From positions 240,001 through 272,000 of the forward strand of contig NZ_CP019633.1 of the NCBI RefSeq assembly GCF_001997385.1: a stretch of DNA of 32,000 nt. The letters run 5' to 3'. Under the pieces are notes generated by a model. It saw nothing but the letters and a program-made list of their open reading frames with translations, searched no databases and was not told the DNA's origin. Within the stretch, counting starts at the first letter, position 1, and the number at the start of each line of letters is the position of its first letter. Source of the stretch: Sedimentisphaera cyanobacteriorum (lineage in GTDB: Bacteria > Planctomycetota > Phycisphaerae > Sedimentisphaerales > Sedimentisphaeraceae). The position numbers and the translations under genes are program-made. Positions 4,998 to 32,000 of the stretch are shown here, piece after piece.

Positions 4998-6694
4998 CTA
5001 AGCAAGAGATATACAAACTTTACATTAAAATCGTTTCTGCTATTGAGGTGGATTTGAGCGATAAAGAAAGGGCTGAGCTCCTGCGCACCGTCAGTTCTGA
5101 TTCAGATGCTGCTTATTATTATTCGCGTTTTATGGAAATGTATTCTATGATGAGCTCACAGGAGGGCAGCTGCATAATCAAAAGCTTAATAGAATCAGAC
5201 GAAGATTTGAGCGTTTCTGATGCAGTTAATATTGATAAAAGCATTATTGACCGGATTTTAGAAGAGCAGAAAAATGCACAGCCAATCAATAAAAACAGGC
5301 AGGAGCAAAAGCATCACAACTCAGTTAAACGAAATCAGCTGAATTCGCCTGATTCGTTTCGCCAGAAAAGGCAGATATCAAAAATAAACCTTTACTCTGC
5401 AATCGCCGGCGCAGCGGCTATGCTGTTTTTATTCATATACGCCAATTTTATTTACAGGCCGGCGGTGGCTTATGTGAAAGACAGTATTGATGTTTATTCT
5501 GCTGAGAAAAATTTAAGCAATGATCAAGGACTGAAACCAGGCGGCTATTCTCTTTCGGAGGGTATATTAAAGATAAAATTTGAAAAGGGCACTGAAGCTA
5601 TATTAGAAGCTCCGGCTATGTTTACACTGGTAAGCCCCGGCGAAATAATTCTTGAATACGGCCGCCTTAATGCGAATGTTCCGCCTGATGGTAAAGGATT
5701 TATCGTAAAAACAAAGAATGCAGTAATAAAAGACCTTAGCACGCAGTTTGGAGTGGAGGTAGGGCATCTTGCAGATTGCAAGGTTTATGTTCACAAAGGC
5801 AGTGTAGAGTTATCGTCGGATAAATCATCAAATGCTGAACATAGCATAGAGCATTTCGCAGAAATATTACGCCAGTATCAGGCTGTGGAATTTAATGAAA
5901 GCAGGGGCTTAGCCGATGTTGAGTACCCTGAAACGGGTTATGTTCGTGATTTTTCTTCAGAAGACAGTTTCGTTTGGCGAGGAGAAAGTTTTTCTCTTTC
6001 CGCTGCGGTTTCAGGTAAAAATGGTTTTAAGTTTGAAAGCGGAAATAAGGTTATAGATCTGTCTGACGGAAAGATTAAGCCCATTGAAAGCTGCTATAAA
6101 GGGTGGCGCGTGGCGCAGGACACTTTTAATGAAGTAGAAGGCAGTAAGTACATAGATTCAGTTTTCGTGCCTCAAAAAGACAAAAACGGATGCAAGATAA
6201 GCACTTCCGGCATAACTTTTGAATCCTTTTCTAACAGTGAAAGCGCCTTTTGGGCGCCTGTCAGCGGTGAGCCTGTTGTTTGGAACATTTCTGATAATCA
6301 GCCGGGAGGAGTGTTTGTAGATGTTGAAACAGGATATGATGATCCGGTAATTTTTATGCACTCAAACTCAGGGATCACTTTTGACCTGCAGGCTTTGAGA
6401 AAAAAGTACCCTTCGCTTCGGCCGTCTTTCTTTCAGACAATTTATCAGACCGCAATAAACCGCTCTGGGACAGGGGCATTCAGGTATTGGGTGTTTGTTG
6501 ACGGCGAAGTTGTCTCAGACGGTTTCCAGCCCGGGACAAATGATTTCCTCAACAGGAAAATTTCAGTTCCATTAAATCAAAACTCCCGATTCTTAACTCT
6601 CGCAATCACCGACAAGGACGACGGAACATCATACGATTGGGGGGTATTCATTAAACCCGTGATCAAATTCGATTTGAAGCCGCTCACTGAATAA
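4994..6694 (+). CDS. FecR-type transmembrane anti-sigma factor with a C-terminal NPCBM-like sensor domain
   Basis: ATG 4994 overlaps the sigma stop codon (ATGA at 4994-4997); the track's alternative start is 4982. There is a single TM segment (INLYSAIAGAAAMLFLFIYANFIY) and a FecR-like region (GILKIKFEKGTEAILEAPAMFTLV...GRLNANVP...FIVKTKNAVIKDLSTQFGVEV...VYVHKGSVEL). The C-terminal beta-sandwich-like tail ends in DGTSYDWGVFIKPVI. Confidence 0.75.
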   Translation: MTKQEIYKLYIKIVSAIEVDLSDKERAELLRTVSSDSDAAYYYSRFMEMYSMMSSQEGSCIIKSLIESDEDLSVSDAVNIDKSIIDRILEEQKNAQPINKNRQEQKHHNSVKRNQLNSPDSFRQKRQISKINLYSAIAGAAAMLFLFIYANFIYRPAVAYVKDSIDVYSAEKNLSNDQGLKPGGYSLSEGILKIKFEKGTEAILEAPAMFTLVSPGEIILEYGRLNANVPPDGKGFIVKTKNAVIKDLSTQFGVEVGHLADCKVYVHKGSVELSSDKSSNAEHSIEHFAEILRQYQAVEFNESRGLADVEYPETGYVRDFSSEDSFVWRGESFSLSAAVSGKNGFKFESGNKVIDLSDGKIKPIESCYKGWRVAQDTFNEVEGSKYIDSVFVPQKDKNGCKISTSGITFESFSNSESAFWAPVSGEPVVWNISDNQPGGVFVDVETGYDDPVIFMHSNSGITFDLQALRKKYPSLRPSFFQTIYQTAINRSGTGAFRYWVFVDGEVVSDGFQPGTNDFLNRKISVPLNQNSRFLTLAITDKDDGTSYDWGVFIKPVIKFDLKPLTE

Positions 6695-7047: not shown

Positions 7048-8670
7048 ATGTTTATACGAGTAAAGACATCAAAAAACAGTCCGAAGCAGTCGGTACAGAT
7101 TGTAGAGAGTTATCGCAACGAGAAGAACCAGCCTCGTCAGCGTATAGTTCGTCATCTCGGCACAGCCTTCACAGAAGAAGAGCTTAAGCGGCTCAAGGAT
7201 TTTGCCGAATTCGAGAAGGCCAAGCTTGAGGCCGAGAAAACGCCGGCACTTTTCAAGCCTGAGCATCTTGCAGAAGCTGCAATAGATGCCCGCAAAAACA
7301 TTGATGATAAGCCTTTGCGGGTCAATCTAAAGAATCTCAGGGAACAGGCACGCATAACTACAGGCATCCATGAGGTATTCGGCAGCATCTACAATGAGCT
7401 TGGCTTTAACAATCTTTTCGATAGACGCAAAGAGTCTGCAGGCAAAAACCTTCGTCATATCACAATGGCAAGGCTTGCAAACCCAGTGAGCAAACGCAGC
7501 AGCGTTCAGGATCTCTCCAAAGACTTCGGCATTAACCTTTCTTTAGACAGCGTTTACCGTATGATGGATAATATCACAGATGATATTATCAGCAAGGCTC
7601 AAAACTGTGCTCACAGTGCTGCTAAAGGCCTTCTCGGCGAAGAGATAAGTCTTCTTTTCTACGACTGCACCACGCTTTATTTTGAATCATTTACAGAAGA
7701 TGAGCTCAAAAAGAACGGCTACAGCAAGGATATGAAGTTCAATCAGCCGCAGGTTGTCCTTGGTCTTCTGTCCACATCAGAAGGGCTTCCAGTAGGTTAT
7801 GAGGTATTCCCCGGCAATCAGTATGAAGGGCATACGCTGCATACTGTAATCCCTAAGATCAAAGAGAAATACAACCTCAAGCGTGTTATCTTCACCGCAG
7901 ACAGCGCAATGCTTAGCAAGGCTAATCTTGATTACCTTGAAAAGCAGGGAGTTGAGTATATTGTGGCAGCGAGGCTTAAAAGCCTCACTGATAAATGGAA
8001 AGCAAAGGTTACAGAATCCAATGCCCCGCTTAGAAGCTTTGATTACGGCAAAGATACAAGGCTTATTGTTACCTACAGCGATAAACTCGCTAAAAAGAAT
8101 AAGCACGACAGGGATGAAGCTATAAGAAAGCTCCAGGAGAAGCTTGAAAAGAGCAGCAACCCCAAATCACTTATAAGCAACTACGGCTACAAGAAGTTTA
8201 TGCGTGTTACCGGCGATATAGATTGCCGGATAGATGAAGAGAAATATGAAGAGGCTGCGAATTTTGATGGTCTTCACGGTGTTATAACGAATGTTAAGGA
8301 TATGGATGATTCGGCTGTAGTAGATCATTACAGGCAGCTCTGGCTGATTGAAGAGTGCTTCAGGATAAGCAAGCACGATCTGAAGATACGGCCGATATAC
8401 CACTGGACGCCGAAACGAATCAAAGCCCATATACTGATATGCTTTATCGCTCTAACCTGCGCGAGAAATCTGGCCTACAGGGTTCGGCTGAGATTTGAGC
8501 CGATGTCTGTGGCGAGGATTGTAAATGCCCTCAACCACGTGCAGCTGAGCATACTCTGGGATAAGAAAACAGAGTGCAGATATGTCCTGCCATCAAAGAT
8601 TAACGAGGACGCAAGAAAACTCTATAAAACAGTTAATCTCAGCACCAATACAACGCCTTACAAAATGTAA
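7048..8670 (+). CDS. IS1634-family DDE transposase
   Basis: 540 aa. The N-terminus MFIRVKTSKNSPKQSVQIVESYRNEKNQPRQRIVRHLG is typical of IS1634-family transposases. The DDE region includes LLFYDCTTLYFES, VIFTADSAMLSKANL and YRQLWLIEECFRISKHDLKIRPIYHW. Confidence 0.9.
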   Translation: MFIRVKTSKNSPKQSVQIVESYRNEKNQPRQRIVRHLGTAFTEEELKRLKDFAEFEKAKLEAEKTPALFKPEHLAEAAIDARKNIDDKPLRVNLKNLREQARITTGIHEVFGSIYNELGFNNLFDRRKESAGKNLRHITMARLANPVSKRSSVQDLSKDFGINLSLDSVYRMMDNITDDIISKAQNCAHSAAKGLLGEEISLLFYDCTTLYFESFTEDELKKNGYSKDMKFNQPQVVLGLLSTSEGLPVGYEVFPGNQYEGHTLHTVIPKIKEKYNLKRVIFTADSAMLSKANLDYLEKQGVEYIVAARLKSLTDKWKAKVTESNAPLRSFDYGKDTRLIVTYSDKLAKKNKHDRDEAIRKLQEKLEKSSNPKSLISNYGYKKFMRVTGDIDCRIDEEKYEEAANFDGLHGVITNVKDMDDSAVVDHYRQLWLIEECFRISKHDLKIRPIYHWTPKRIKAHILICFIALTCARNLAYRVRLRFEPMSVARIVNALNHVQLSILWDKKTECRYVLPSKINEDARKLYKTVNLSTNTTPYKM

Positions 8671-16786: not shown

Positions 16787-17626
16787 ATGAAAAAGAAGGC
16801 TTTTACACTGATCGAATTGCTTGTAGTAATTTCAATTATCGCGCTTCTGATGGCGGTTCTTATGCCGGCTCTTGGAAGAGCGAGAGAACAGGCCAAATCC
16901 ACGGTCTGCCAGACACGCCTGAAACAGTGGGGCGTTATCTGGAATGTTTATACCGATAAGTATGGCGGCAGATTCCCAAGCGCATATGATATCAATGACA
17001 GATACGGAATAGGCTGGCTTAGAGGTGCTTGGATTATTCCTCTGCGTTACGAATGGGAAACAAACTCTGACATCCTTAGGTGTCCAGAAGCAGAAGAGCC
17101 TGCTCCAAAGCAAGACCCCGATGACCCCAGCTACAATGGGCTAAGACATGCATACTGGATGGGAGATCCGGGCAATATTCAAGACGAGGAAGACCTTGAT
17201 GAAAAGGAATATGCCAGCTACGGGATGAACTGCTGGGCTTTTGATGATTCAAAAGATGTTCAGCAAAGACCAGCTGAGTACCACTGGAGAGCTATCAGCA
17301 GAGTCAGCAGGGCGAATACAGTTCCGCTTTTTGCAGACAGCATGTGGAGAGGCGGCGGGCCTCACTATGAACGAGGCGAAACTGCAATTCAGCCATCCCC
17401 GCAAAATGGGCAGTTTATGAACTACGACAATGAGATGTCTCACTTTACAGTGAGAAGGCACCCTAAGGGTACGAACCTGCTGTTTATGGACGGTTCGGTA
17501 GGTAAACTTTCAATTAAAGACCTCTACCACCAGAAATGGCACAGGATGTTTGACCTTCACGGAAGATACTCAGAAGAAGATACCGAAGTTGACTGGCCTG
17601 AATGGATTGAAGACACTACAGACTAA
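16787..17626 (+). CDS. Prepilin-type N-terminal cleavage/methylation domain protein of the H-X9-DG (DUF1559-like) class
   Basis: The N-terminus MKKKAFTLIELLVVISIIALLMAVLMPAL is a type IV pilin-like leader plus hydrophobic helix. The C-terminal HPKGTNLLFMDG matches the H-X9-DG motif. Confidence 0.85.
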   Translation: MKKKAFTLIELLVVISIIALLMAVLMPALGRAREQAKSTVCQTRLKQWGVIWNVYTDKYGGRFPSAYDINDRYGIGWLRGAWIIPLRYEWETNSDILRCPEAEEPAPKQDPDDPSYNGLRHAYWMGDPGNIQDEEDLDEKEYASYGMNCWAFDDSKDVQQRPAEYHWRAISRVSRANTVPLFADSMWRGGGPHYERGETAIQPSPQNGQFMNYDNEMSHFTVRRHPKGTNLLFMDGSVGKLSIKDLYHQKWHRMFDLHGRYSEEDTEVDWPEWIEDTTD

Positions 17627-17935: not shown

Positions 17936-18793
17936 ATGAAAAAGAAGGCTTTTACACTGATCGAATTACTTGTAGTAATTTCAATTATCGCGCTTCTGAT
18001 GGCGGTTCTTATGCCGGCTCTTGGAAGAGCGAGAGAACAGGCCAAATCCACGGTCTGCCAGACACGCCTGAAGCAGTGGGGCGTTATCTGGAATATCTAT
18101 ACGGGCAAATACGGAGGCAGTTTCCCCAGTGCTAATGATATGGACAAAAGATACGGGATAAACTGGCCGCGTGGCGCATGGATTATTCCTCTTCGCCACG
18201 AATGGGAAACGAATAATGACATTTTAAGATGTCCTGAAGCGGAAACACCCAATGAAGACGGCGATTATGGAGATTTAGACGAGGCCTACTGGATGGGCAA
18301 CACTAATGTCGATGAGGAAGAGGATCTCGAAGTACAGGAATATGCCAGCTACGGGATGAACTGCTGGGCATTTGACGAACCGCCCGGAGCTCCTGATAAT
18401 ATTTATCAGGGAAGAGAGCAAAAGTATTACTGGCGTAATATAACGAGAGTTTCACGTGCAAATACGGTTCCGCTTTTTGCAGATGCTGTATGGCGAGGCG
18501 GCGGGCCTCACTATGAACGAGGCGAAACTGCAATCCAGCCATCCCAATACAATGGCAGCCAGGCTCCGCAAGAAGTGTATAATTTTAATGTTAGCTATGA
18601 AATGGCACACTTTACAGTGAGAAGGCACCCGAAGGGAACAAACCTCTTGTTTATGGACGGCTCGGTTAATAAGCTCAGTATCAAAGATCTCTACCACCAA
18701 AAATGGCACAGGAGATTCGATCTGCACGGCCGCTACTCAGAAGAAGATACCGAAGTTGACTGGCCTGAATGGATTGAAGACACTACAGACTAA
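17936..18793 (+). CDS. Prepilin-type N-terminal cleavage/methylation domain protein of the H-X9-DG class (paralog)
   Basis: The first 53 aa are identical to the upstream paralog. The HPKGTNLLFMDG motif and the C-terminal tail RYSEEDTEVDWPEWIEDTTD are also shared, while the middle diverges. Confidence 0.85.
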   Translation: MKKKAFTLIELLVVISIIALLMAVLMPALGRAREQAKSTVCQTRLKQWGVIWNIYTGKYGGSFPSANDMDKRYGINWPRGAWIIPLRHEWETNNDILRCPEAETPNEDGDYGDLDEAYWMGNTNVDEEEDLEVQEYASYGMNCWAFDEPPGAPDNIYQGREQKYYWRNITRVSRANTVPLFADAVWRGGGPHYERGETAIQPSQYNGSQAPQEVYNFNVSYEMAHFTVRRHPKGTNLLFMDGSVNKLSIKDLYHQKWHRRFDLHGRYSEEDTEVDWPEWIEDTTD

Positions 18794-19692: not shown

Positions 19693-19958
19693 TTTTCAAT
19701 ATTTCAAAAGAGTTTACAGATTATTTCTTGAAAGTTGCGAGATAATGTGGAATATATTCATCTTTCAGGGCGTGATGTCAAATTAAATTGGGTGAAAAAT
19801 CCAAATGACAATAAATTATTGACAGCGAAAGGTATTTTTGGCTTGCAAAGCTGAAGGCCTAACTATAAACTTAGCAGACTATTTCCGGAAATTTGTTTCC
19901 GGATCGGATAGCATATAAAATTGACACTTAATATACTTATACATTGCCGGAGGTAATA

Positions 19959-22900
19959 GTGGCTAATTTAGCGACACTTGTTGCACGTAAAGGAATGGTG
20001 TTACTAAGAACCGTTTTGGCCGTTGGGCTTATTGCTTTAGCTTCTACGGTTGTCGTTGGCTTTGCAGCTCAGGATGATGCTGCATTGACAAAGGCAGTTG
20101 ACGAGTACATCGAAGTTTGTCAGTCTCAGTACGACAAAGGCCTGTATTCTACAGCTAAAGACGGGCTTCTTGAAGCCAAGTCTGAATATTCTTCAGATAT
20201 GACCGAAGCTCAAAAGAGCCGGATTAATTCGATGCTTGAAAGGGTAAATCAGGCTATCGAGGCTCGAACCCGTGTTTCAGAGATGCTGGAAAACGGCAAG
20301 AAAGCTGTAAACAGCAAAGACTACAGCCAGGGGCTTGAGATGCTTAATCAGGTTGTCTCTGATAAGTATGCCAGCAAGGCTCAGGTTGAAGAGGCTAAGT
20401 CGGTCCTTGAATCTGCTGAAGAGTCTATGCAGAAGGTTGAAGAGCAGATGGAATCTCTGTTCGACGAAAGCGTATCGCTCTACAAAGACGGACTGCTGAG
20501 AGAAGCTATGCAGGGCTTCCAGAAGGTAAGCCGGAGCGGAGTTGATGTTTCCAACTGGTTCGGCAGAGACAGCGAATATTATATCGCCAAAATCAAAGAG
20601 GCGATGGATGCCGGCAGCAATGCAGAGCAAACGGCAGCTTCTAAGCAAACCGAACAGGCCTCCGCTGAGCAGAAAAAGCAGGAAAATGCCTCTGAGGGCA
20701 CCGCAAAGCAGGAAGCGATGGAGCTTTTCAAGCAGAGCGTTGAAGAGTATAAGGCCGGGAATTACGAAGCCGCAAAAGACGGATTCGAGGCAGTTGCAGA
20801 CAGCGGCTATGATATAAAGAATTTCTGGGGCAGAGACAGCGAATACTTCCTTCAGAAGATCAGTGATAAGAGCAAAGAGCTGGCTGAAGAGGCCGAAAAG
20901 GCAGAAGAAGAAGCCAGAATGGCCGAAGAGAAAAAGGCCAGAGAGAAGGAAGAAGCCGAGCAGAAAGCTCGTGAAGAGGCTATGGATAAGCTCTTCCGTG
21001 AGAGCGTGGAGCAGTATCGCGGGGGCAATTTTGATGCCGCTGAAGAGGGATTCCAGCTCGTTGAGAAAAGCGAATTCAATCCGAAATACTGGGGTAAAGA
21101 CAGCAGTGATTTCCTTGCTCGAATAGAAAAGGCTAGAAAGGCCAAGGCCGATAAGGCCGCAGAGGCTGCAGCTGAAAAGCAGACTGCTGAAAAGCAGACT
21201 GCTGAAAAGAAAGCAGAAAAAGCTCAGCAGGCTAAGCAGGAAAAGCCGGATATCAGCGCAGAGGCCAAAGCTTCCGAGCAGAAAAAATCCCCTGAGGCAA
21301 AAGAAGACAGCTATCTGAGGGTCCTCAGCGAAAAGAGGAACCGTCAGAGAGATTACACACGTGCGATAGTGAACGATGCAGTTACAAAGGCAAACCAGTA
21401 TCTCGGCGATGAGCAATTTGCCAAGGCAAGAGAGGCGCTCTCGGTGGCCTATGCAAACATCGAGAAAACCAAGATGCTCCTCGGCGATGAGCTATACAGC
21501 GAATATAAAACACGCCTGGATTCTCTCAGCACAAAGATAGACAACCTCCAGCAGGAGGCGAGGATCGAATCTGCCAAGATTGAACGTGAGCAGACTGAAG
21601 AGCTCGAGAAGGAGATACGCAGGGATATGGAACGTCAGCGCCAGCAGGCGGTGAAAGACTACATGGAAAACGCTATGGCCTTCCAGAGAGAGCAGCGTTA
21701 TGAAGAAGCCCTCGCTCAGCTCGAGGCCCTTCTCGCTATAGACCCGCTCAACAGTATGGCACTGCTCCAGAAGCAGACATTAGAGCAGACAATATCATGG
21801 CGCAAGCAGATTGAGGTTCAGAATAAGATGCACAGGGAAGAGATCGAAACCCTCATCAAAGCCGATGAGGCATCAATCCCTTATGCAGACGATATGACAT
21901 TCCCCTCCAACTGGAAGGAAATCGTTAAAAAGCGTGAACAGCGCGAGAGCGACGGAATGAGCAAGGAAAACCTTGATGTTTACCGTCTGCTTGATCAGAA
22001 GGTTGACCTCTCGGCATTATATGAAGATATGCCGTTCGGCGAGGCGCTTGAAGTGCTCAGGAATTCCACAAATCCTCCGCTGACGATTATCGTTCTCTGG
22101 AGAGATCTGGATGAAAATGCGTTTATCGACCAGACCACGCCAATAAACCTCACAATACCGGCTCCTGTGAAGGTTAAAACAGCCTTAGAGCTTCTGCTTG
22201 ATTCAGTTGCAGGCGGGCTTGCAGAGCTGAGCTATGTAGTTAAGGACGGGATCATACAGATTGCCACTATGGGCTCACTGCCCGATAAGATGGTTACAAA
22301 ACGCTACGATGTTCGTGAGCTCTTGGGCGAAACAGCGAACTTCAGCTTTGAGATGGACGTTTCAAACTACGGACAGAGCGAAGGAAGAACTGCCGGCGGT
22401 GGCGGCGGCGGCGGTGATGACTATGAATCCGACGATGATGACCAGCAGGAAGATACCCGCGACTCTCTAACCCAGAGAGCTTCCACACGTGCTCAGTCTA
22501 TTGTTAATCTGATTCAGGAAACTGTTGCACCGGAAACCTGGTACGATGCCGGCGGCGATGGTTCTATTACCACTTTCCAGAATAATGTGCTGGTAATCCG
22601 CCAAACCCTCGAACAACACGAGAAAATCAAAGAGCTTATAGACGAGCTCCGCCTTACTCTCGGCGAGCAGGTTGCAATTGAGGCAAGATTCCTCACGGTA
22701 ACTGAGAACTTCCTTGAGCAGATCGGAATTGATCTGGATATGGTAATCAATCCGGACGATTCCAACTGGAATGAGATCGCATTTACCCAATCTCACAAAT
22801 CAGGCGGCGCACCTTCAGATTCAGGCTTGCCGGGTTCTCTGGCAGGTGCAATTGCATCTTCAATGAACGGAAGCTATGTTATGGACGATCTTCAGGTGAG

Positions 22901-23525
22901 CTTCCTGATAGAGGCCACTCAGGCTCATAAAGACGCAAAGAGCCTGAATGCCCCGAGGGTAGCAGTGCTCAATGGTGAACGTGCGAGTATCAGAGTGGGC
23001 AAGGAAACAAGCTTCGTGAGCGATTACGAATTTGAAGACCTCTCAACTACAGGCGATAACCCGCTTGTAAGAACGATTGCAGACCCTGAGATCGACAGGA
23101 TACGTGATGGTGTTAATCTTACTGTTACTCCAACCATTACAGCGGACAAGAAATATGTGATTCTCGGGATACAGACTCAGTATCTCAAGACCAACTTCGA
23201 TACATATACAGTTCCTTCGGATACTGGAACTGGAACGCAAGAGTATCCTATCCAGCTCCCTGTGAGGGAAGAGGCGAGAATCGGTACGAGGGTAACTGTC
23301 CCTGACGGCGGAACCCTGCTAATTGGCGGGCAGAAGCTTACAGGCCAGAAAACCGCCGAGAGCGGAGTGCCGGTTTTGAGCAAAATGCCTTTCGTAGGCC
23401 CGCTGTTTGAAAACAGAGGCACGCTTAAAGACCAGAGCATCTTGCTCATACTCGTTAAGCCTTCCATTATCCTCAGGGACGAACAGGAAAAAGAAGCCGT
23501 GGATGCGATGGAAAGCAATTTCTAA
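19959..23525 (+). CDS. Secretin (type II/III secretion / type IV pilus secretin family) with an extended repeat-rich N-terminal region of about 700 aa
   Basis: The secretin C-domain reads LNAPRVAVLNGERASIRVG...DGVNLTVTPTITADKKYV...TVPDGGTLLIGG...SGVPVLSKMPFVGPLFENRG...ILLILVKPSII. Planctomycete-type motifs are present: TKRYDVRELL and IQETVAPETWYDAGGDGSI...VLVIRQT...HEKIKELIDELR. GTG 19959 has GGAGG 6 nt upstream and yields a signal-like N-terminus (ARKGMVLLRTVLAVGLIALAS). Alternative starts are TTG 19944 and ATG 19995. Confidence 0.9.
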   Translation: MANLATLVARKGMVLLRTVLAVGLIALASTVVVGFAAQDDAALTKAVDEYIEVCQSQYDKGLYSTAKDGLLEAKSEYSSDMTEAQKSRINSMLERVNQAIEARTRVSEMLENGKKAVNSKDYSQGLEMLNQVVSDKYASKAQVEEAKSVLESAEESMQKVEEQMESLFDESVSLYKDGLLREAMQGFQKVSRSGVDVSNWFGRDSEYYIAKIKEAMDAGSNAEQTAASKQTEQASAEQKKQENASEGTAKQEAMELFKQSVEEYKAGNYEAAKDGFEAVADSGYDIKNFWGRDSEYFLQKISDKSKELAEEAEKAEEEARMAEEKKAREKEEAEQKAREEAMDKLFRESVEQYRGGNFDAAEEGFQLVEKSEFNPKYWGKDSSDFLARIEKARKAKADKAAEAAAEKQTAEKQTAEKKAEKAQQAKQEKPDISAEAKASEQKKSPEAKEDSYLRVLSEKRNRQRDYTRAIVNDAVTKANQYLGDEQFAKAREALSVAYANIEKTKMLLGDELYSEYKTRLDSLSTKIDNLQQEARIESAKIEREQTEELEKEIRRDMERQRQQAVKDYMENAMAFQREQRYEEALAQLEALLAIDPLNSMALLQKQTLEQTISWRKQIEVQNKMHREEIETLIKADEASIPYADDMTFPSNWKEIVKKREQRESDGMSKENLDVYRLLDQKVDLSALYEDMPFGEALEVLRNSTNPPLTIIVLWRDLDENAFIDQTTPINLTIPAPVKVKTALELLLDSVAGGLAELSYVVKDGIIQIATMGSLPDKMVTKRYDVRELLGETANFSFEMDVSNYGQSEGRTAGGGGGGGDDYESDDDDQQEDTRDSLTQRASTRAQSIVNLIQETVAPETWYDAGGDGSITTFQNNVLVIRQTLEQHEKIKELIDELRLTLGEQVAIEARFLTVTENFLEQIGIDLDMVINPDDSNWNEIAFTQSHKSGGAPSDSGLPGSLAGAIASSMNGSYVMDDLQVSFLIEATQAHKDAKSLNAPRVAVLNGERASIRVGKETSFVSDYEFEDLSTTGDNPLVRTIADPEIDRIRDGVNLTVTPTITADKKYVILGIQTQYLKTNFDTYTVPSDTGTGTQEYPIQLPVREEARIGTRVTVPDGGTLLIGGQKLTGQKTAESGVPVLSKMPFVGPLFENRGTLKDQSILLILVKPSIILRDEQEKEAVDAMESNF
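20457..21134 (+). repeat. Three tandem 89-codon (267-nt) units inside the secretin gene
   Basis: The Leu-Phe anchor codons at 20457, 20724 and 20991 are exactly 267 nt apart. Each unit has a conserved core of about 49 aa, LF.(E/Q)SV..Y..G....A..GF..V..S......(W/F)(F/W)G(R/K)DS..(Y/F)...I, followed by a charged K/E/A/Q linker of about 40 aa. Confidence 0.85.
21171..21209 (+). repeat. 15-bp tandem nucleotide repeat (2.6 copies)
   Basis: GCTGAAAAGCAGACT occurs twice, followed by GCTGAAAAG. It encodes AEKQT-AEKQT-AEK. Confidence 0.8.
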
Positions 23526-23553
23526 AGCAAAGACGGATTTTAGTAATGCCTTG

Positions 23554-23581
23554 GCGCTCGGACGGTTATGCGCCGAGGCGC
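23554..23581 (+). other. GC-rich bulged hairpin in the secretin / giant-ORF spacer
   Basis: GCGCTCGG (23554-23561) pairs with CCGAGGCGC (23573-23581) with one bulged G. No U-tract follows, so this is not a canonical terminator. The loop contains an alternative in-frame ATG at 23568. Confidence 0.3.
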
Positions 23582-23624: not shown

Positions 23625-26600
23625 ATGGTTAAGCGAATATTTTCGTTACTGGTTGTAATGTTTGTCTCAGCGGCTGTTTTTGCAGCTCCGTATAACGGAG
23701 GGGTTTTCAAGGTACGCCAGCCTGACGGCAGCGTAGTTAAGGTTAGGGGATACGGCGACGAATTCTACGGCCGATTTGAAAGCCTTGACGGCTACACCCT
23801 GACTAATGACGAAGACGGTATGCTGGTTTATGCAGATATCAGCCAGGATGGTACTCAGTTCAAACCGCTTGATATCAGATACAACCCCACCGAACCTACA
23901 GACACTTCACTTCCGGAATTCCGGAACAGTACGGCTGCTGAGAATAACCGCGGGGTTTTTCCTGAAAGTCTTGATATAAAATCAGAGGTTATCAGGGAAA
24001 TTCGCCTGAACAAGATTGAAGAATATGAGGCTGATCAATATATGATTCCGGCTGAGCAGGGTCCTCAGAAACAGTCACTGCAGCAGCTTCCTTACGACCC
24101 GGAAACCTTTGAGCCTAAATACTACAGGCCTGTAACCGGTGAGATAGAAGGCCTTACAATTGTTATAGAATTTTCAGACATATCCGGAGACATACCAGTA
24201 TCAGCGGAGGAACTTGGCGATAACGAACAGAGATGCGTTGAGAATTTCTGCAACTTGGTCGGATACGACGCTGACGGTAACAACGGATCTATCAGAGATT
24301 ACTATTACGGAGTTTCCAACGGAAAGCTTACATATACAAATCAGGTGGCAGGATATTATACTGCTGAAAATGATTTTACTTACTATAATGACGGCCCGGG
24401 GACTGCCAGAGGGCTCATTAGAGAGGCTCTAAACGGCCTTGCAGACCAAATTGATGTTTCCACACTTACAATAGACCCTGCTACAGAAGAGGTTCAGGCA
24501 TTGAACGTGTTGTATGCAGGACAAAGGCCTAACGAATGGGGAGCAGGACTTTGGCCGCACAAGTATAATTTGAGTGCAGGCGGCGGTGCTACCGTAACCA
24601 TAGACGGAGCTACGTTCGATGTATATCAGATTACAGATATGGGTACTTCAGAAAATCCTGCGATGGAAATTGGTACATTCGCCCATGAAAACGGACATAT
24701 GCTTTGCGGTTATCCTGACCTGTACGATTATGGTTATGAATCCAGCGGAATCGGTTCTTACGGGCTGATGGCCGGCGGTTCATACGGCGGAAACGGAACA
24801 AATCCGATGGCTATAAACGGCTATTTCCGCTGGCTCAGCGGCTGGGAAATCCCTCAGTATCTTACCAGTGAAAGTGAAGGCAATCTGCACACCGCTTTAG
24901 GCAGCGAGATGCAGGCTACAGAAGCCCCTGAAGAAGACTGGGAAACCTTTGACGAATATCAGGGAAATATATTTGTATTTATGAACGAGGAAAATCTTGA
25001 AGAATTCTTCGTAATAGAAAATATAATCAATTCTGGCAGGAAAGGCTCTGCGGCAGATAACGGCCTTGCAGTATGGCATGTCGATGAAGGCAAGGGCGGA
25101 TACGGTGCTAACGACCAGGAGCATATGACTCCTGATAGGCATTATCATGTTTCGCTTGAACAGGCTGACGGAAATTTTGATCTCGAAAACGGGAATGGTC
25201 AGGGTGATGGAACTGATTTATTCGGCGCTCCCAGATTTCCGGAGTTTTACGCAGATCAGAATATTCAGCCAAATTCAGTTTGGTGGAACGGCGAACCTTC
25301 AGGTTTGAGACTTTATGAGATATCAGAGCCGGGCGGTGAGGTAACTTTCTATGCTGAAATATCTCCAAAATATGCAAGAATAGTTCGTCCAAGCGGTGCA
25401 GACCCCACTGATATGGCCAATGAAGTTGAGAGATTTAAGACTATTCAAGAAGCCTTTGATGCCGCTCAAGACGGAGATGATATCTACGTTGCAGACGGCT
25501 TCGAATACCACGAATTCCTCGATACGGTAGGCAAGAGCCTCGCTGTATATGCAGAGGCCGCAGACCCGAACGATCCTAACGATGACAACTGGCAGGACTA
25601 TATGGATGATTACAAATCCGTTCCTGTTGAGCCTACGAATATCGCATTTAATATCGATTATATGGATTACGATCCTGATATGGCCGGAGACCCGAACGAA
25701 ATTCCTTCTCTCACTGTTTCGCAGGGCGAGCAGGTGAGCTTTGAAGATTTTGCATTTACAGGGCATCCGTACTCAGCCATTAATGTTTCTAACAATTCTC
25801 TGGCAGTATTTGAAAGCTGCTCGTTCACTAAACACGGAACTGGAGCACCTAAAGAAGTAATAGATGATACCGGCCAGTTTGTTACAGATCCGGAAACAGG
25901 CGAGAATCTTGTAGCGCCTTCAATTGAATACAATGATTTCTCTGATAATACAAATGCCTTTGTCCTGGAAAATGGCAGCATAGAGCTCACAAACTGCGAA
26001 TTCTCGGGCAACATAGGCAGAGGAGACGGAGGTTCGTGTATTTACGGCGAGGGGCAGTCTTCTGTGATGGCCTCTGGTACCGAATTTGAAGGGAACTCCT
26101 CCAAATCCGACGGCGGTGCTGTTTTCTTCAAAGACGGATACGTAGAATTTTCTCGGTGCAGGTTTGAAGACAACGAAGCCAGATTCAACGGCGGCAGCAT
26201 CAGCCTTGAGTCTGTAGATGATAACAGCGTTATTAGAGATTCCCGTTTTGTATCAAACAGCGTAAATATTTACGGCGGTGCACTTTACAGCTCCGACTGT
26301 GCTGTAGAATTTGTGAATAATCTCCTTTATGAATGCACCTCCAGCTGGTATGGCGGGGCGTTGTATTTTGATTCTCCACATAATCAGAACAAAGTTTACA
26401 ACTGTACTTTTGATAATAACGACGGCCTCGTTGCAGGCGGAGCGATATACCTTACAGGTGCAGCAGGCCAGAGCCAGTTCTACAACAACATCTTCTCAAA
26501 TACCCCGGGTTACGCAGTTTACGAGGCGGCTGCCGGGATTGATGTGGAGCTTAAGAACAACCTATTCTTCAACAACGGAGCTGATTACTGGGATGAGAAT

Positions 26601-29600
26601 GTAGTTGGATATATTGGAGCCTCACAAGTTAACAATATACCGAATTCAACCGGCAACATCGATGATGACCCGATGTATGTTCAGGGCTATCTCGGAGACC
26701 ATTACCTGAGCAATGAAGGTGCAGGGCAGATTCTTGATCAGTACAACAGGCTTGCTTCTGACTTGGGCAGCTCTGCTACAAGCCCATGTGTTGATGCCGG
26801 GTATGGTGAGCCTTCCGATTTTGATATTGATAGCCTCTCTACCAGAACAGACAATGCCCCTGATGACAATGATTCAGCTGATATTGGATACCACTATAAC
26901 GACCCGAATCAGGTTTATGGCGGTGTTTTCAAGGTGTCTATCAATGTTTCGCCGAAAGAAGGCGGACAGGCAGCTGGAAACTTTACATTGTCTGATAATC
27001 CTTCCGGGCAGGAATACGTGTACGGTTTCGACCCGGCTGATCCGAACAACTTCAACGTGAAGCCTTTCGAGCAGGTAGTCCTTGAGGTATCCTCGGACAG
27101 CTCATATATGTTCGAGAAATGGCTGGATGAAGACGGCGAGCAGATGACGGAGATCCTCGGAGGCGATGACCCGGACTCTGATTTCTACGCATTCTACGAT
27201 GAAAACGGCCAGCCGATGTATGTTGATAATGAAATTGGCGGCGAACCATACAAGATTGTTATGACTATCGATCAGCACAGGGAATTCTTTGCTGAGCTCG
27301 TTAAACAGAGAGTAGAGCTTACGGTTTACGTTAAGAGCGGAAACGGCAAAGTTTATCAGGACGGCGAGCTTACGCCGGTTAAAGAATACGCAAAAGGCGA
27401 GGTAGTAGATCTAAGAGTTGAGCCGCTCGAGTCTGAGCATAAAGTTCGCTGGACAGGCACGGATAACGACGCCTCTTTGAGCCTGAAGAATCAGGTTACA
27501 GTCCGAGAGCAGCAGCAGGTTGTGGAAGTTGAATTCTACCAGCCGAATGTCTGGACTGTGGGCATGCAGGGAGACAGCAACCTCTCTGATGTTGTCAGGA
27601 ATATTCTGGTTGACCCGACCTTCGAAGACGGCGATGTTATTCAAGTTTTGCCGGGCGAATATTCTTGGGATGATAATACATATCCAGACACTGGATTAGT
27701 TATAAATATTGACAGGCCGGTTGTTATTGAAGGCGCTACGGGCAACCCTGATGATGTGTCTATAAGAGACGGAATCTGGAACTTCTGGGATGTCGGCAGA
27801 AATACAATAATAAGAAATATCACCTTCGACCATACCGGACAGACTTACAGAACACTGACGAACTATAATGGCAAAACCCCTGAGAACCCGTTCTTTAACG
27901 GTGATAACGGAACCCCGGGCGGAGGTTCTGTAATGAGGTTCTGCTCGCTGTTCGTTCCGGAATACGAATGGATGAACTACGGGAACAGCTATTATCCTGT
28001 ACTAACGCAAGGCCCTGAAGAGGGGAAATGGATTACGGCTTCGCCCACCATTGAGAACTGCAGCTTTATTAATGCAACTTTCGATGTTGCAGACGGCAGC
28101 AATGGAGCATCTGATGATTCTAACTTCGGCGAAGGCGGCTGGCCCGGATACACGCTGGGCGGTGCGGTAACTATAAGCGATTTCTGCGAGCCGAGGTTTG
28201 TAAACTGCACTTTCCAAGGATGTGAAATACAGGGCGGACACGGCGGAAACGGCGCCGGTATTGCAGGATACGGCGGAATGTGGGATTCTCCGGAAAATCC
28301 AGCTTTCGGATATGATGATGATGATATTTATGGAGCAGGCAATATAGGATTCCCAAGATTTGTTCTGCCTTTCCATAAACGAGGCATATATTACTTTACG
28401 TACGAAGTTGCCGGAGATGACGGATTAGAGCAGATAGATGTCCTCGGCGGAGTGGGCTATCCATCCCCTGTTCCTGAACAGAATTTGATGTATTCTTATT
28501 ACAACAGTTACGGCAGCGCCTACTACGGGAATTTCTCTTCTATAGAGCCAAAAGCCAGCTACGGCGGACGCGGCGGTGCTGTGTATATAGGCATCGGCGC
28601 AAGACCGGAATTCGTTTCGTGCGATTTTATAGAGAACAATTCTCAAAGCGGTTCCAGCGGTGTTCGAGGCGGCTCTGGGGCGAGCCCGAGGCAGCACTGG
28701 AGAGTACCTTCGTTTGGCGGAGCTGTTTTCTGCGATGCGAGAAGTGAACCGCTGTTTGAAGACTGCCTGTTCAGGGATAACATCGCAAACTACGAAATTC
28801 CTACTACTCATCCCGATGGCGGTGAGATTCAGGAAGACAACAGCTATATGAGCTACGGCGGTGCAGTTTATGCAAACAGAAACTCTCTGCCCGTGTTCCG
28901 TAAATGCCGCTTTGAAGGCAACGAGGCTGTTGTAGGCGGTGCGATTGCTGTGGACAATATCGGCGTAATCAATGACGAAACCGACCAGATAGAGAATCTT
29001 ATCGTTGAAGACTGCACTTTTACTGGCAACATATCTTCAGTTGGCGGTGCTGTAACAAGTGCCGGCGGTTCTCAGAGCAGATATGAATTCCTTTCCGAGG
29101 ATCCTCTCTTCCCGGGTATCGGGCCTCTGATATATACCGACGATCAGGGCAATCAGTATGATGTTTACAGATGGAATTTCGCTGTTGGCCAGAAAGAAGA
29201 CCAGATCACAGGCGAGCCTTGGGGACCAAAGCTCAACGAGACTGTATCTCATTCTGCCGGCTTCAGCGCATTTATTAGAAACGACTTCATCGAAAATACG
29301 GCTAATCTGTTTATCACCGATATCAGAGCCAGCTATACAGACGAAGACGGCAATGTCTTAGATCCGGTGGATCTCGGGGAATACAGCAGGGCAGGCCTTG
29401 GCGGGGCGTTGGCGCTTTTCACCAGCAAGAATCAGATTGTTGACTGCGTGCTGAGCGAAAATGTCAGCGGCGGCTTCGGCGGCGGTATGTATATCTCAGG
29501 AAAAACTCTCACTGATGTATTAGAGACAACCGAATACAGATCTACATATCTGCGGAATGTGCTTCTTAATAACAACTACTCCGCATTCGGCGGAGGCGGA

Positions 29601-32000
29601 TTATGCACCAGCAAATATTCAGACCCGCAGCTTATCAACTGTACTCTGGCAGATAATGTCGTTACAAGCTCTACCGGCAAAGGCGGCGGTCTGCTTGCAA
29701 CTAACGACAGCTATATTTCAGCAATAAACAGCATATTCTACGGCAACCTCAGCTCTAACGGGGCTCAGATTGCTGTTAATGAGGTGAATGAAGGCGAGCC
29801 TTCAACTGCAGATGTAAGGTACAGCCTTATCGAAGAAGGCAACGTTCAGCAGGCACCGATAGATATGGGCATTGAAGCAGTAAGGCCTGTTAGGAATCCG
29901 GCAGAATCAACATACAGCATATCTGATCAGGAAATTCTGCTCGAATCTGAAACAGACCTCTATGTCTTCGATGCTGAAGAATACGGGAACGACTTCTCAT
30001 CCTCGCTGATTGAGATGGGCTTTACCGTAAACTTCTACGAGCAGACTACCAACAGCGTGTTCGTGAATGAAAACGGCTGCATATCATTCTGGCAGGCGCT
30101 CTCTGAGATACAGAACTATCTTCTCAGCAGTGATTTGGGCACGCCGGTAATCGCACCGTTCCATGCGGATGTGGATACCAGCAGAGGCAATACCGCCAAA
30201 GCGGCCCGCGGAACTGCACGAGTGCTTACAGAAGACGGGTCTTACATCGACACTAAGGTGTTTGCTGTAACGTGGAATGAAGTGGGCTATTATGAGTCTC
30301 ATCTGGACAAGGTAAACAAGTTCCAGTTAGTTCTAATAGACAGAAGCGACCGCGGCGAGAATGATTTCGATATCGAATTCAACTACGACCAGATCGAATG
30401 GGAGACCGGAGACGACCAGAACGGAGCCGACGGGCTCGGCGGAAATTCTGCTGTTGTAGGTTTCTCAGACGGAACAGGCAGCCCGGGCAGCTTCTACGAG
30501 CTCAGCGGAAGCGGGCAGCCAAGCGCCTTCCTCGATAACAGCACAACAGCTCTTATCGCCCGTTCGAGAAACAGCAACGCAATGGGACGTCTTGTATTCC
30601 GTGTTAAAGAAGGCCAGCCCCATATTAAATACGGCAGCCCTGTATATACCAACGGAAGCTCCAAGATAAACTACAACGCAGATTTCGACAGATGGGACCC
30701 GGCAGCGAATAATATCGTTGGCGATCCTGTATGGGCGCAGGAAGGCGTTTATTATCTCAACAAGAAATCCATAGCAATAGACCCGAACAAGCCTGAGAGC
30801 CCATGCTTTGACAAGGGTGCAGGCAATGCGAGGGATTACGATATCTACAGGCATACTACAACTACTGACAACGAGCTCGATGTTGACCGTGTTGATATCG
30901 GATACCATTATGTTCTTCCGACAACTGAAGGGCTCGAGGGCGATTTCAACTTTGACGGGGTGATTAGTCAGTTTGAATCTGTAGAGTCTATGGCGGAATA
31001 CTGGCTCGACGAGTGCTACCCGCCATACTGGTGCCACGGACGCGATCTCAACCAAGACGGGATCGTGAATACCCTTGACAGAACGGTAATGGCAAGCCTC
31101 AGCGAGGTGGATTCTGTAGCTCCCCAGCCTCTTTACGGAGAGAACGGCGAGCTGGTAGAGCAGGACTTCACTGAAAACCAGCCCCGCAGGATGACTTGGG
31201 AAACCAAGCCGATTTCAAACGGCTCAGGCGTGGGCGAGATTCGTATGGTGGCAAGCCTGACTACTGACAACTGCATCGGCTCTGTGGAGTATCAGTTCCA
31301 GATGACATACCCGGAAGCCAAGATTGCACGGGACTGGGGCGTTTCAAGAGAATTCCTCGATACCGGCCTGAATGTAGGGGATGAATATGCATACCGCTGC
31401 AGGGCAAGAGATGCTCAGGGCAATGAAACCAAGTGGTCTCTTGCGGGCAGAACTGTTGCAGGCGACGATTCAACGCCTCCGATTACCGATCTGAACGCAG
31501 AAAATATTTATAAGTCTAAATGGGCTCTATCTGAAACAGGTATGCTTCTCAGCCCGCACGTAGTGAACGTTGCAGGCGGATTGGCAGATATAAAGATGGT
31601 AGCTGTTGAAGCAACAGACGAAAACGGCGTAGAATACTACTTCGAATGCACAAGCGGCAACGGGCACGACAGCGGCTGGATCGAAGAGCCTGAATACATC
31701 GATACTGATCTGCCGGTTGGCGAGCTCTATACTTACAGAGTACGCACAAGAGACCTCTCCAGAAACTTCAACCTCGGCGAATGGTCTGATGAGGCCTCTG
31801 CGTTTGCAAGCATTGAAAACATAATCGATACCGAGCCGCCGGCTCCTCTGAGCTACATAATAGGCGCTGATATCGTAGATGGCGAATATTTGATATGGGA
31901 TGATTATGTATATCATACTATCACCGCTGTTACAGATTCGATTGATATATCTCAGCCTGTATGGTATCAGTTTATCTGCCTGACAAACAGCAGCTTGAGC
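23625..32000 (+). CDS. Giant secreted multidomain protein, 3'-truncated by the window edge: M6/InhA-like metalloprotease, Pmp-like parallel beta-helix modules, InlB-B-repeat-like, NIDO-like, dockerin-like and FN3-like domains
   Basis: This ORF is not in the supplied track. I translated codons by hand from ATG 23625 (positions divisible by 3) to base 32000 and found 2,792 codons with no stop. The signal peptide is MVKRIFSLLVVMFVSAAVFA. The zinc site is FAHENGHMLCGYPDLYDYG, with HEXXH at 24684-24698. There are at least 10 GGA(I/V/L) motifs plus (C/F)xFxxN motifs, and two SPC(V/F)D(A/K)G...DIGYHY caps. The NIDO-like stretch reads FTVNFYEQTTNSVFVNENGCISF...FQLVLIDRSD...DFDIEFNYDQIEWETGD. Confidence 0.9.
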   Translation, partial: MVKRIFSLLVVMFVSAAVFAAPYNGGVFKVRQPDGSVVKVRGYGDEFYGRFESLDGYTLTNDEDGMLVYADISQDGTQFKPLDIRYNPTEPTDTSLPEFRNSTAAENNRGVFPESLDIKSEVIREIRLNKIEEYEADQYMIPAEQGPQKQSLQQLPYDPETFEPKYYRPVTGEIEGLTIVIEFSDISGDIPVSAEELGDNEQRCVENFCNLVGYDADGNNGSIRDYYYGVSNGKLTYTNQVAGYYTAENDFTYYNDGPGTARGLIREALNGLADQIDVSTLTIDPATEEVQALNVLYAGQRPNEWGAGLWPHKYNLSAGGGATVTIDGATFDVYQITDMGTSENPAMEIGTFAHENGHMLCGYPDLYDYGYESSGIGSYGLMAGGSYGGNGTNPMAINGYFRWLSGWEIPQYLTSESEGNLHTALGSEMQATEAPEEDWETFDEYQGNIFVFMNEENLEEFFVIENIINSGRKGSAADNGLAVWHVDEGKGGYGANDQEHMTPDRHYHVSLEQADGNFDLENGNGQGDGTDLFGAPRFPEFYADQNIQPNSVWWNGEPSGLRLYEISEPGGEVTFYAEISPKYARIVRPSGADPTDMANEVERFKTIQEAFDAAQDGDDIYVADGFEYHEFLDTVGKSLAVYAEAADPNDPNDDNWQDYMDDYKSVPVEPTNIAFNIDYMDYDPDMAGDPNEIPSLTVSQGEQVSFEDFAFTGHPYSAINVSNNSLAVFESCSFTKHGTGAPKEVIDDTGQFVTDPETGENLVAPSIEYNDFSDNTNAFVLENGSIELTNCEFSGNIGRGDGGSCIYGEGQSSVMASGTEFEGNSSKSDGGAVFFKDGYVEFSRCRFEDNEARFNGGSISLESVDDNSVIRDSRFVSNSVNIYGGALYSSDCAVEFVNNLLYECTSSWYGGALYFDSPHNQNKVYNCTFDNNDGLVAGGAIYLTGAAGQSQFYNNIFSNTPGYAVYEAAAGIDVELKNNLFFNNGADYWDENVVGYIGASQVNNIPNSTGNIDDDPMYVQGYLGDHYLSNEGAGQILDQYNRLASDLGSSATSPCVDAGYGEPSDFDIDSLSTRTDNAPDDNDSADIGYHYNDPNQVYGGVFKVSINVSPKEGGQAAGNFTLSDNPSGQEYVYGFDPADPNNFNVKPFEQVVLEVSSDSSYMFEKWLDEDGEQMTEILGGDDPDSDFYAFYDENGQPMYVDNEIGGEPYKIVMTIDQHREFFAELVKQRVELTVYVKSGNGKVYQDGELTPVKEYAKGEVVDLRVEPLESEHKVRWTGTDNDASLSLKNQVTVREQQQVVEVEFYQPNVWTVGMQGDSNLSDVVRNILVDPTFEDGDVIQVLPGEYSWDDNTYPDTGLVINIDRPVVIEGATGNPDDVSIRDGIWNFWDVGRNTIIRNITFDHTGQTYRTLTNYNGKTPENPFFNGDNGTPGGGSVMRFCSLFVPEYEWMNYGNSYYPVLTQGPEEGKWITASPTIENCSFINATFDVADGSNGASDDSNFGEGGWPGYTLGGAVTISDFCEPRFVNCTFQGCEIQGGHGGNGAGIAGYGGMWDSPENPAFGYDDDDIYGAGNIGFPRFVLPFHKRGIYYFTYEVAGDDGLEQIDVLGGVGYPSPVPEQNLMYSYYNSYGSAYYGNFSSIEPKASYGGRGGAVYIGIGARPEFVSCDFIENNSQSGSSGVRGGSGASPRQHWRVPSFGGAVFCDARSEPLFEDCLFRDNIANYEIPTTHPDGGEIQEDNSYMSYGGAVYANRNSLPVFRKCRFEGNEAVVGGAIAVDNIGVINDETDQIENLIVEDCTFTGNISSVGGAVTSAGGSQSRYEFLSEDPLFPGIGPLIYTDDQGNQYDVYRWNFAVGQKEDQITGEPWGPKLNETVSHSAGFSAFIRNDFIENTANLFITDIRASYTDEDGNVLDPVDLGEYSRAGLGGALALFTSKNQIVDCVLSENVSGGFGGGMYISGKTLTDVLETTEYRSTYLRNVLLNNNYSAFGGGGLCTSKYSDPQLINCTLADNVVTSSTGKGGGLLATNDSYISAINSIFYGNLSSNGAQIAVNEVNEGEPSTADVRYSLIEEGNVQQAPIDMGIEAVRPVRNPAESTYSISDQEILLESETDLYVFDAEEYGNDFSSSLIEMGFTVNFYEQTTNSVFVNENGCISFWQALSEIQNYLLSSDLGTPVIAPFHADVDTSRGNTAKAARGTARVLTEDGSYIDTKVFAVTWNEVGYYESHLDKVNKFQLVLIDRSDRGENDFDIEFNYDQIEWETGDDQNGADGLGGNSAVVGFSDGTGSPGSFYELSGSGQPSAFLDNSTTALIARSRNSNAMGRLVFRVKEGQPHIKYGSPVYTNGSSKINYNADFDRWDPAANNIVGDPVWAQEGVYYLNKKSIAIDPNKPESPCFDKGAGNARDYDIYRHTTTTDNELDVDRVDIGYHYVLPTTEGLEGDFNFDGVISQFESVESMAEYWLDECYPPYWCHGRDLNQDGIVNTLDRTVMASLSEVDSVAPQPLYGENGELVEQDFTENQPRRMTWETKPISNGSGVGEIRMVASLTTDNCIGSVEYQFQMTYPEAKIARDWGVSREFLDTGLNVGDEYAYRCRARDAQGNETKWSLAGRTVAGDDSTPPITDLNAENIYKSKWALSETGMLLSPHVVNVAGGLADIKMVAVEATDENGVEYYFECTSGNGHDSGWIEEPEYIDTDLPVGELYTYRVRTRDLSRNFNLGEWSDEASAFASIENIIDTEPPAPLSYIIGADIVDGEYLIWDDYVYHTITAVTDSIDISQPVWYQFICLTNSSLS

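Follow-up and report, generated by a model that had tools for sequence, protein, structure and literature searches.

The window analyzed here is a stretch of 32,000 nucleotides from the planctomycete Sedimentisphaera cyanobacteriorum (contig NZ_CP019633.1 of assembly GCF_001997385.1, positions 240,001 to 272,000, forward strand). Its end is taken up by a giant open reading frame (ORF) on the + strand, which follows a gene for a long secretin and encodes a predicted exoprotein with an M6-type metalloprotease head on a long, non-catalytic scaffold. Two separate translations from ATG 23625 to base 32000 agreed on 2,792 sense codons and zero stops, with an upstream in-frame stop (TAA) at 23544 and the last codon in the window starting at 31998. 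The same count had been given in a sequence-only reading of this DNA, which had also pointed out that the frame is absent from the program-made ORF list and that ORFs in other frames stay below 200 amino acids (aa). Both statements held, as no listed ORF lies in this frame and the longest one elsewhere over 23625 to 32000 has 196 aa. The ORF lister skips frames that are still open at the window edge; the giant ORF, a genuine gene and the largest in the window, was omitted solely because it overruns this edge.

At the base composition of this region, a stop-free run of such length would occur by chance with a probability of ~1e-66. An in-frame stop or a frameshift in this interval would have undone the gene call. 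No stop was present, and the ratio of nonsynonymous to synonymous substitution rates (dN/dS) relative to the orthologue of Sedimentisphaera salicampi was 0.069 overall and 0.03 to 0.11 in each module. The whole frame is a constrained coding sequence under strong purifying selection. Readings of the frame as a pseudogene, as an artefact of the assembly or as open by chance have practically no probability left, since nothing speaks for it beyond the stop-free frame within the window, and the chance estimate, the dN/dS of 0.07 and intact orthologues in at least four other assemblies all stand against it.

The sequence AGGA sits 9 nucleotides 5' of ATG 23625. A second in-frame ATG at 23568, 19 codons further upstream, was considered as the start and rejected, because the start of the orthologues corresponds to 23625 and their signal peptide is the same. 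As the S. salicampi orthologue has 2,938 aa, ~146 C-terminal codons are missing from the window, and 23625 to 32000 should correspond to the first 95% of a single S. cyanobacteriorum gene of ~2,940 codons.

The predicted protein starts with a Sec-type signal peptide (aa 1 to 20, 23625..23684, + strand like all features of the giant gene given below), which can be read directly as MVKRIFSLLVVMFVSAAVFA/AP and forms a helix at residues 2 to 19 in the structure model. A Sec signal peptide had been suggested before and is plausible; homologous signal peptides (MKRQILISSLILLS...) lead scaffold-family proteins at other loci. It is followed by an N-terminal beta domain, a helix and a disordered linker (aa 21 to 170, 23685..24134), which are conserved in all 16 aligned heads. 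In the model, the strands at residues 26 to 85 reach predicted local distance difference test (pLDDT) values of 80 to 90, and residues 135 to 162 stay below 50. Judging from the fold match to the InhA2 zymogen described below, this segment is possibly the prodomain of an M6 zymogen.

The head itself is a predicted M6 (InhA-type) zinc metalloprotease catalytic domain with a C-terminal beta subdomain (aa 171 to 580, 24135..25364). TIGR03296 matched aa 216 to 485 (E = 5e-43, 147.9 bits versus a cut-off of 110.8), and Peptidase_M6 (PF05547) scored 31.9 bits versus a cut-off of 22 on a 600-aa segment. The motif HENGH occupies aa 354 to 358 (24684 to 24698) and PDLYD aa 364 to 368 (24714 to 24728), so that the zinc-site stretch HENGHMLCGYPDLYD at aa 354 to 368 follows the pattern HExxHxxGxPD. 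H354, E355, H358 and D365 are invariant in the alignment of 16 heads, and D365 is presumably the third zinc ligand, in line with established knowledge of M6 enzymes. An AlphaFold2 model of residues 1 to 625 had a mean pLDDT of 75.5, with 85 to 95 in the core. When it was compared with the Protein Data Bank (PDB) by Foldseek, the top four matches were to 4YU5/4YU6, the zymogen of InhA2 from Bacillus anthracis (E = 4.5e-16 to 4.3e-15, probability 1.0, template modelling score 0.45 to 0.47). These were also the only strong fold matches, and their high root mean square deviation is due to a different domain arrangement. Neither phmmer nor a 16-sequence profile of the head found any match among PDB sequences; InhA2 was recovered by the fold search alone. 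The M6 active-site residues are intact and lie in an InhA-type fold, as expected from the earlier assignment of an M6/InhA-type module with HENGH at 24684 to 24698 and PDLYD behind it.

The giant's head shares the HExxH...D zinc site, the TIGR03296/PF05547 domain and the 4YU5/4YU6 fold with the M6 enzymes of the MEROPS database, such as InhA1 and InhA2 of Bacillus and PrtV of Vibrio cholerae. InhA and PrtV are secreted proteins of ~700 to 920 aa with small accessory domains (PKD in PrtV, which has 918 aa; PMC4519245). The giant differs from them by ~2,300 residues of beta-helix, NIDO, dockerin and Fn3 modules behind the head and by the lack of a direct sequence or profile match in the PDB.

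The scaffold begins with a right-handed beta-helix of the Pmp type (aa 590 to 1130, 25392..27014), which consists of GGA[ILV]/FxxN rungs and was matched by Pfam Beta_helix (63.5 bits) and Chlam_PMP (PF02415, 35.5 bits versus a cut-off of 20.6). It opens with the cap motif FKTIQEAFDAAQDGDDIYVADG and closes with SPCVDAG...DIGYHY; in total, the giant protein carries 17 GG[AGS]x and 19 FxxN sites. An immunoglobulin (Ig)-like InlB-B-repeat (Flg_new_2) region occupies aa 1131 to 1375 (27015..27749; PF18998, 24.5 bits versus 23.6), and Flg_new_2 matches are far stronger in other members of the scaffold family, up to E = 1e-40. A second, long Pmp-like region at aa 1376 to 2090 (27750..29894) was assigned as a beta-helix from motifs and pairwise homology: GG[AGS]x and FxxN recur across aa 1433 to 2038, and BLASTP pairs aa 1646 to 2077 with beta-helix regions of P0003, a giant relative of 3,712 aa. 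It is followed by a nidogen-like NIDO domain at aa 2143 to 2328 (30051..30608), which matched PF06119 over positions 1 to 185 of 186 (E = 2.3e-30, 106.5 bits versus 25). The next segment, aa 2329 to 2431 (30609..30917), repeats the motif at the end of the first beta-helix (SPCFDKGAG...DIGYHY) and resembles a beta-helix cap. No family model matched it, and it aligns with P0003 residues 2386 to 2475 and 3203 onward.

A type I dockerin-like module with an inserted Cys...WC loop is found at aa 2435 to 2501 (30927..31127). Type I dockerins consist of a duplicated EF-hand-like Ca-binding loop and helix of ~22 residues each. The module contains two such loops, DFNFDGVIS and DLNQDGIVN, 34 residues apart, and a profile of it (A5) searched against PDB sequences matched type I dockerins over both repeats (query positions 3 to 57; 2Y3N_B, E = 3.8e-10; CelS 2MTE/1DAQ, E = 2e-8). 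This match, together with the conservation of the module across the scaffold family, would fit a role in docking the giant into a cellulosome-like surface complex via a cohesin-bearing anchor. We consider such docking rather improbable, as neither the window nor the flanks of the orthologues contain a cohesin and similar half-sites are present in other giants of the Planctomycetes-Verrucomicrobia-Chlamydiae (PVC) group without known cohesins, e.g., P0004.

M6-headed giants with wholly different scaffolds, including P0004 (L006, 8001-13130), and other PVC giants carry the same dockerin-like half-site with Cys residues (W...C....C.G.DL..D..V...D). It appears to be a widespread PVC module.

Two Fn3 modules lie further downstream, at aa 2516 to 2621 (VEYQFQ...) and 2631 to 2736 (VEYYFEC...SGW...YRVRTRD), together covering 31170..31832. 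They were recognized with a profile (A4) that matched PDB sequences of Fn3 domains from titin (6e-12), DCC (1e-4) and chitinase A1 (ChiA1, 4e-4) as well as FN3con. Both segments are all-beta in the structure model of the C-terminal 821 residues, in which they alone reach a pLDDT of 60 to 80. According to the alignment with the full-length orthologues P0001 and P0002, a third beta module starts at 31833 and is cut by the window edge at 32000. The S. salicampi orthologue continues for ~146 further residues with an acidic low-complexity tail at its end, and the third module is presumably also of the Fn3 type and followed by such a tail. Self-BLAST of the giant protein at E ≤ 1e-3 found no internal repeats, as its repeated modules have diverged too far to be picked up in a pairwise comparison. 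The Beta_helix/Pmp repeats and the NIDO domain proposed in the sequence-only reading were thus recovered by their family models. Its proposals of Dockerin_1 and fn3 stood in part: both were supported by the profiles against PDB sequences, but on the single sequence Pfam Dockerin_1 scored 17.2, below its cut-off of 22.9, and Pfam fn3 gave no match on the window sequence itself.

The GGA[ILV]/FxxN beta-helix repeats (PF02415) are shared with the chlamydial Pmp proteins and raise the question of whether the giant is an autotransporter adhesin of this type. This is very improbable, and membership was rejected because the orthologues lack a C-terminal beta-barrel: precomputed Pfam annotations and NCBIfam showed no autotransporter barrel in full-length P0001 and P0002, and full-length orthologues end in Fn3-type modules and an acidic tail. 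Without the barrel, the export route and the anchoring of the giant differ from those of chlamydial Pmp proteins. The sequence-only reading had suggested looking beyond the window for a C-terminal sorting signal, and none was present in the C-termini of the orthologues. In NCBIfam, full-length P0001 and P0002 matched TIGR03296 alone and no PEP-CTERM, type IX secretion system C-terminal domain or LPXTG signal, and a Pfam search of the last 206 aa of P0001 returned nothing. Also, no transmembrane region follows the signal peptide of the giant protein.

The best homologue of the giant is a protein of S. salicampi (WP_085755098.1/ARN56403.1; 2,938 aa), which is 90% identical over all 2,792 residues and is named "M6 family metalloprotease domain-containing protein" in RefSeq, a name that covers the head alone and not the scaffold. 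It has the same domain order as the window gene and the same neighbours (tsaB, secretin, a small transmembrane protein, dxr and rseP); the two differ in the species and in that the window copy is cut by the window edge. Full-length orthologues span 2,894 to 2,943 aa. A protein of 2,894 aa with 50% identity was found in two Joint Genome Institute metagenomes, and an orthologous ORF of 2,894 aa in a metagenome-assembled genome of the Phycisphaerae was the sole return of a scan of a genome collection. The 90% cluster of P0001 contains only a second S. salicampi strain.

The sequence-only reading had called the fusion of a protease to such a scaffold unusual, and this was borne out for its size only. 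A search with the M6 head returned 9,293 representative proteins at E ≤ 1e-3, in which the head was always N-terminal and followed by a variable extension. The proteins carrying the 150 closest heads were 508 to 2,894 aa long, with just two of them exceeding 2,000 aa, so that ~2,900 aa is extreme for an M6 enzyme. On the other hand, a word-indexed search yielded more than 40 M6-headed proteins of 1,600 to 3,900 aa whose scaffolds differ from this one and include Laminin_G, PATR, CARDB and RCC1, and an orthologue is already in RefSeq. Giant genes are also routine in Planctomycetes: Kohn et al. found genes of >5 kb in all 29 planctomycete genomes studied, and more than 90% of bacterial giant genes code for surface proteins or for polyketide synthases and nonribosomal peptide synthetases (PMC5177795). 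The giant protein thus stands out among M6 enzymes by its size but not by its kind. Giant surface proteins and multidomain M6 proteases are already familiar and an orthologue is already annotated; what is added here is the full module map and a head-swapping scaffold family at a fixed site beside a secretin.

This family became apparent from the loci of related proteins. The order tsaB (- strand), secretin, giant is retained in all orthologue loci. P0003 occupies the same slot, after tsaB and a secretin of 1,119 aa that is 38% identical to the one in the window; it carries an S8 subtilase head and an additional VWA domain and is 32% identical to the window giant over 428 C-terminal residues, a stretch that covers the cap as well as the dockerin-like and Fn3 modules. 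When metagenomes were scanned with the secretin alignment, 75 loci were obtained, ~25 of which were informative, i.e., contained a full-length secretin relative and enough downstream DNA. In ~20 of these ~25, a giant ORF with scaffold homology and a homologous signal peptide lies directly downstream of the secretin on the same strand (2,039 to 2,603 aa when complete, >3,300 aa where the contig ends within the ORF), and the secretins upstream of scaffold-family giants have ~1,000 to 1,200 codons. P0003 and the other family members (L010 to L045) share with the window giant the homologous signal peptide, the cap motifs, Flg_new_2, the dockerin-like module, the terminal Fn3 modules and the slot after the secretin. 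They differ in that their head is of the S8 type or absent and that the acidic tail is confined to the Sedimentisphaera clade; no NIDO match was recorded in P0003 or in the first 1,000 aa of seven others. By these comparisons, the non-catalytic scaffold defines a Sedimentisphaerales family of giant exoproteins whose head is of the M6 type, of the S8 type or missing.

The giant genes of L005, L012, L017, L020, L023 and L035 encode proteins of 2,039 to 3,712 aa with an S8 head or none. S8 heads with a fervidolysin-like prodomain are present in L017, L038 and L041. In the headless members (L012, L020, L023 and L035), the beta-helix cap motif directly follows the signal peptide, and the same motif, FKTIQEAFDAAQDGDDIYVADG, stands after the M6 head in the window protein. 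Since headless relatives carry this cap motif right after the signal peptide, the M6 head seems to have been added to a common stalk in a lineage-specific manner. The protein P0066 (657 aa, 54% identical) was considered as a stand-alone ancestor of the head and rejected, as it ends inside the beta-helix cap motif; it is a fragment of another giant of the M6-headed clade.

These members also bear on what the head does. For the S8 and C39 heads of the giant proteins of Omnitrophota, it has been proposed that they act in cis (bioRxiv 10.1101/2023.11.21.568195), and by analogy the M6 head might mainly cut the giant precursor into smaller mature pieces. This appears unlikely, because the headless members imply that the scaffold matures without a head, and two unrelated catalytic classes at the same position are more in keeping with an added effector than with an enzyme dedicated to maturation. 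Furthermore, the characterized M6 enzymes InhA and PrtV cleave external proteins.

The secretin gene lies 99 bp upstream of the giant on the same strand (19944..23525, +) and encodes a protein of 1,193 aa, which is unusually long for a secretin. A hydrophobic anchor at its N terminus is followed by a long coiled-coil/TPR-like region, in which three internal repeats of ~45 aa (LF.ESV..Y..G....A..GF..V..S......W.GRDSEY...KI) occur, and the secretin domain itself (PF00263 at aa 992 to 1176) is C-terminal. Coiled-coil stretches rich in Lys, Glu and Ala and a poly-Gly/acidic insert, GGGGGGGDDYESDDDDQQED, in front of the conserved C-terminal part were also found, and a permissive Pfam scan of the N-terminal 880 residues returned nothing significant. 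The spacer between the two genes contains a GC-rich hairpin with a 10-bp stem and no U tract (23548..23579, +); a 105-nucleotide spacer sequence folds with -29.2 kcal/mol (z = -2.1). This hairpin could be an element for processing, stability or attenuation. On its + strand, the 99-bp spacer showed neither a terminator-like nor a promoter-like site.

Taken as a whole, these data are best explained, and in our view likely so, by a Sec-exported giant exoprotein that presents an M6 protease on a stalk, is the M6 version of the Sedimentisphaerales scaffold family, and leaves the cell via the adjacent secretin. From the N to the C terminus, it would consist of the signal peptide, an N-terminal domain that may be a prodomain, the M6/InhA-type protease, a Pmp-type beta-helix, Ig-like repeats, a second long beta-helix, NIDO, the type I dockerin-like module, three Fn3-type modules and an acidic tail. 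Export would most likely proceed through Sec first and then through the outer membrane via a type II-like pathway using the adjacent secretin. The rigid beta-helix stalk and the NIDO, dockerin-like and Fn3 modules would keep the active protease on the surface of the cell or in the matrix around it, where the tethered enzyme may cleave proteins of the microbial-mat material that is the habitat of this fermentative polymer degrader.

Several observations weigh against this interpretation. With respect to the stalk, the second beta-helix is weak in Pfam (Beta_helix, E = 0.1), the structure model of the C-terminal 821 residues, made from an alignment of 4 sequences, was poor (mean pLDDT 34.9) and was not used, and neither a cohesin partner nor another anchor was found in the window or among the flanking genes of the orthologues. 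With respect to export, the secretin remained below every NCBIfam subtype cut-off (GspD, PilQ, MshL and SctC), no GspE/F-type genes are present within the window, and the spacer hairpin is retained in S. salicampi, where a U-G pair of the stem has become C-G. Finally, the gene order tsaB(-), secretin, aroC(-), aroA(-) is itself a backbone that is syntenic across loci and includes unrelated housekeeping genes, and the loci L022, L024, L028 and L030 keep the secretin with no giant between it and aroC.

The last two points indicate that the secretin functions without a giant and that the adjacency could be inherited gene order, with the giant using the general secretion machinery or another route and having no special tie to the secretin. 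We give this alternative slightly less than an even chance. It has to account for the downstream flank of the Sedimentisphaera clade, which has been rearranged (small transmembrane protein, dxr and rseP) with the secretin-giant junction kept, and for the giants being always co-oriented with the secretin and separated from it by a short spacer across loci. In addition, M6-headed giants with unrelated scaffolds have no secretin neighbour. The kept junction, the constant orientation and spacer, and the lack of a terminator-like or promoter-like site on the + strand of the spacer speak for a functional coupling of the giant to the adjacent secretin, which is plausible. Export of an M6 protease through a type II secretion system is known for PrtV of V. 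cholerae (PMC4519245).

A more specific form of such coupling, which we put forward tentatively and would not bet on, is that the secretin with its long N terminus and the giant form a two-gene module of Sedimentisphaerales dedicated to export or display. The secretin would act in the export and perhaps also the retention of one giant stalk protein, whose distal N-terminal head has been exchanged in evolution (M6 in Sedimentisphaera, S8 or none elsewhere). If true, this would be a modular surface-weapon system with a logic akin to that of the Omnitrophota giants beside type II secretion loci. Going by their description, the giants of this PVC-related phylum offer a published analogue to the secretin-neighbour scaffold family, as they combine an N-terminal S8 or C39 peptidase with dockerin-type repeats and periodic folds and are encoded beside gspD loci (West-Roberts et al., bioRxiv 10.1101/2023.11.21.568195). 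They differ in being far larger, in having, as reported, numerous transmembrane regions and in a secretion locus of more than 10 genes, compared with one secretin gene, an M6 head and no transmembrane region after the signal peptide in the system described here.

The giant is a genuine gene whose annotation can proceed domain by domain. It adds a well-defined giant protease-adhesin in a cultured, anaerobic, polymer-degrading planctomycete, in which genetics and proteomics are possible in principle. If the coupling is functional, the system would be a tractable model for the export and use of giant surface proteins in the PVC group and for the swapping of heads on a common stalk; if the adjacency is mere synteny, the giant would be a routine giant surface protein.

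Further genes in and near the window were noted. Just past the window end, the giant gene is followed by a gene for a small polytopic membrane protein of 283 to 352 aa, which is restricted to the Sedimentisphaera clade (L001, 18904-19962; L002, 18769-19620; L004, 11920-12801). The protein has a conserved N-terminal transmembrane segment, an acidic low-complexity linker and three to four C-terminal transmembrane helices, and it matched no Pfam or NCBIfam family, including in a permissive Pfam scan. Upstream of the secretin gene, two tandem pseudopilin-like paralogues of the prepilin type (N-methyl, H-X9-DG) are encoded on the + strand (16787-17626 and 17936-18793) and are 76% identical to each other. 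A pseudopilin-like protein and the ArgJ of the window each have an exact counterpart among S. cyanobacteriorum database proteins (AQQ08400.1 and WP_077538641.1). S. salicampi has a single pseudopilin-like gene at this position, which points to a recent duplication in S. cyanobacteriorum.

Near the other end of the window, a gene for an extracytoplasmic function (ECF) sigma factor of the Rhodopirellula/Verrucomicrobium type (TIGR02989) overlaps the gene for a 570-aa FecR-like protein by 16 nucleotides (4479-6694, +). The FecR-like protein has a weakly NPCBM-like C terminus. GH2 and UxaE-like genes lie upstream of the two, which may form a regulatory pair that senses glycans. Between this pair and the ArgJ region, a DDE_Tnp_1 transposase ORF of 540 aa (7048-8670, +) probably represents an insertion sequence element.

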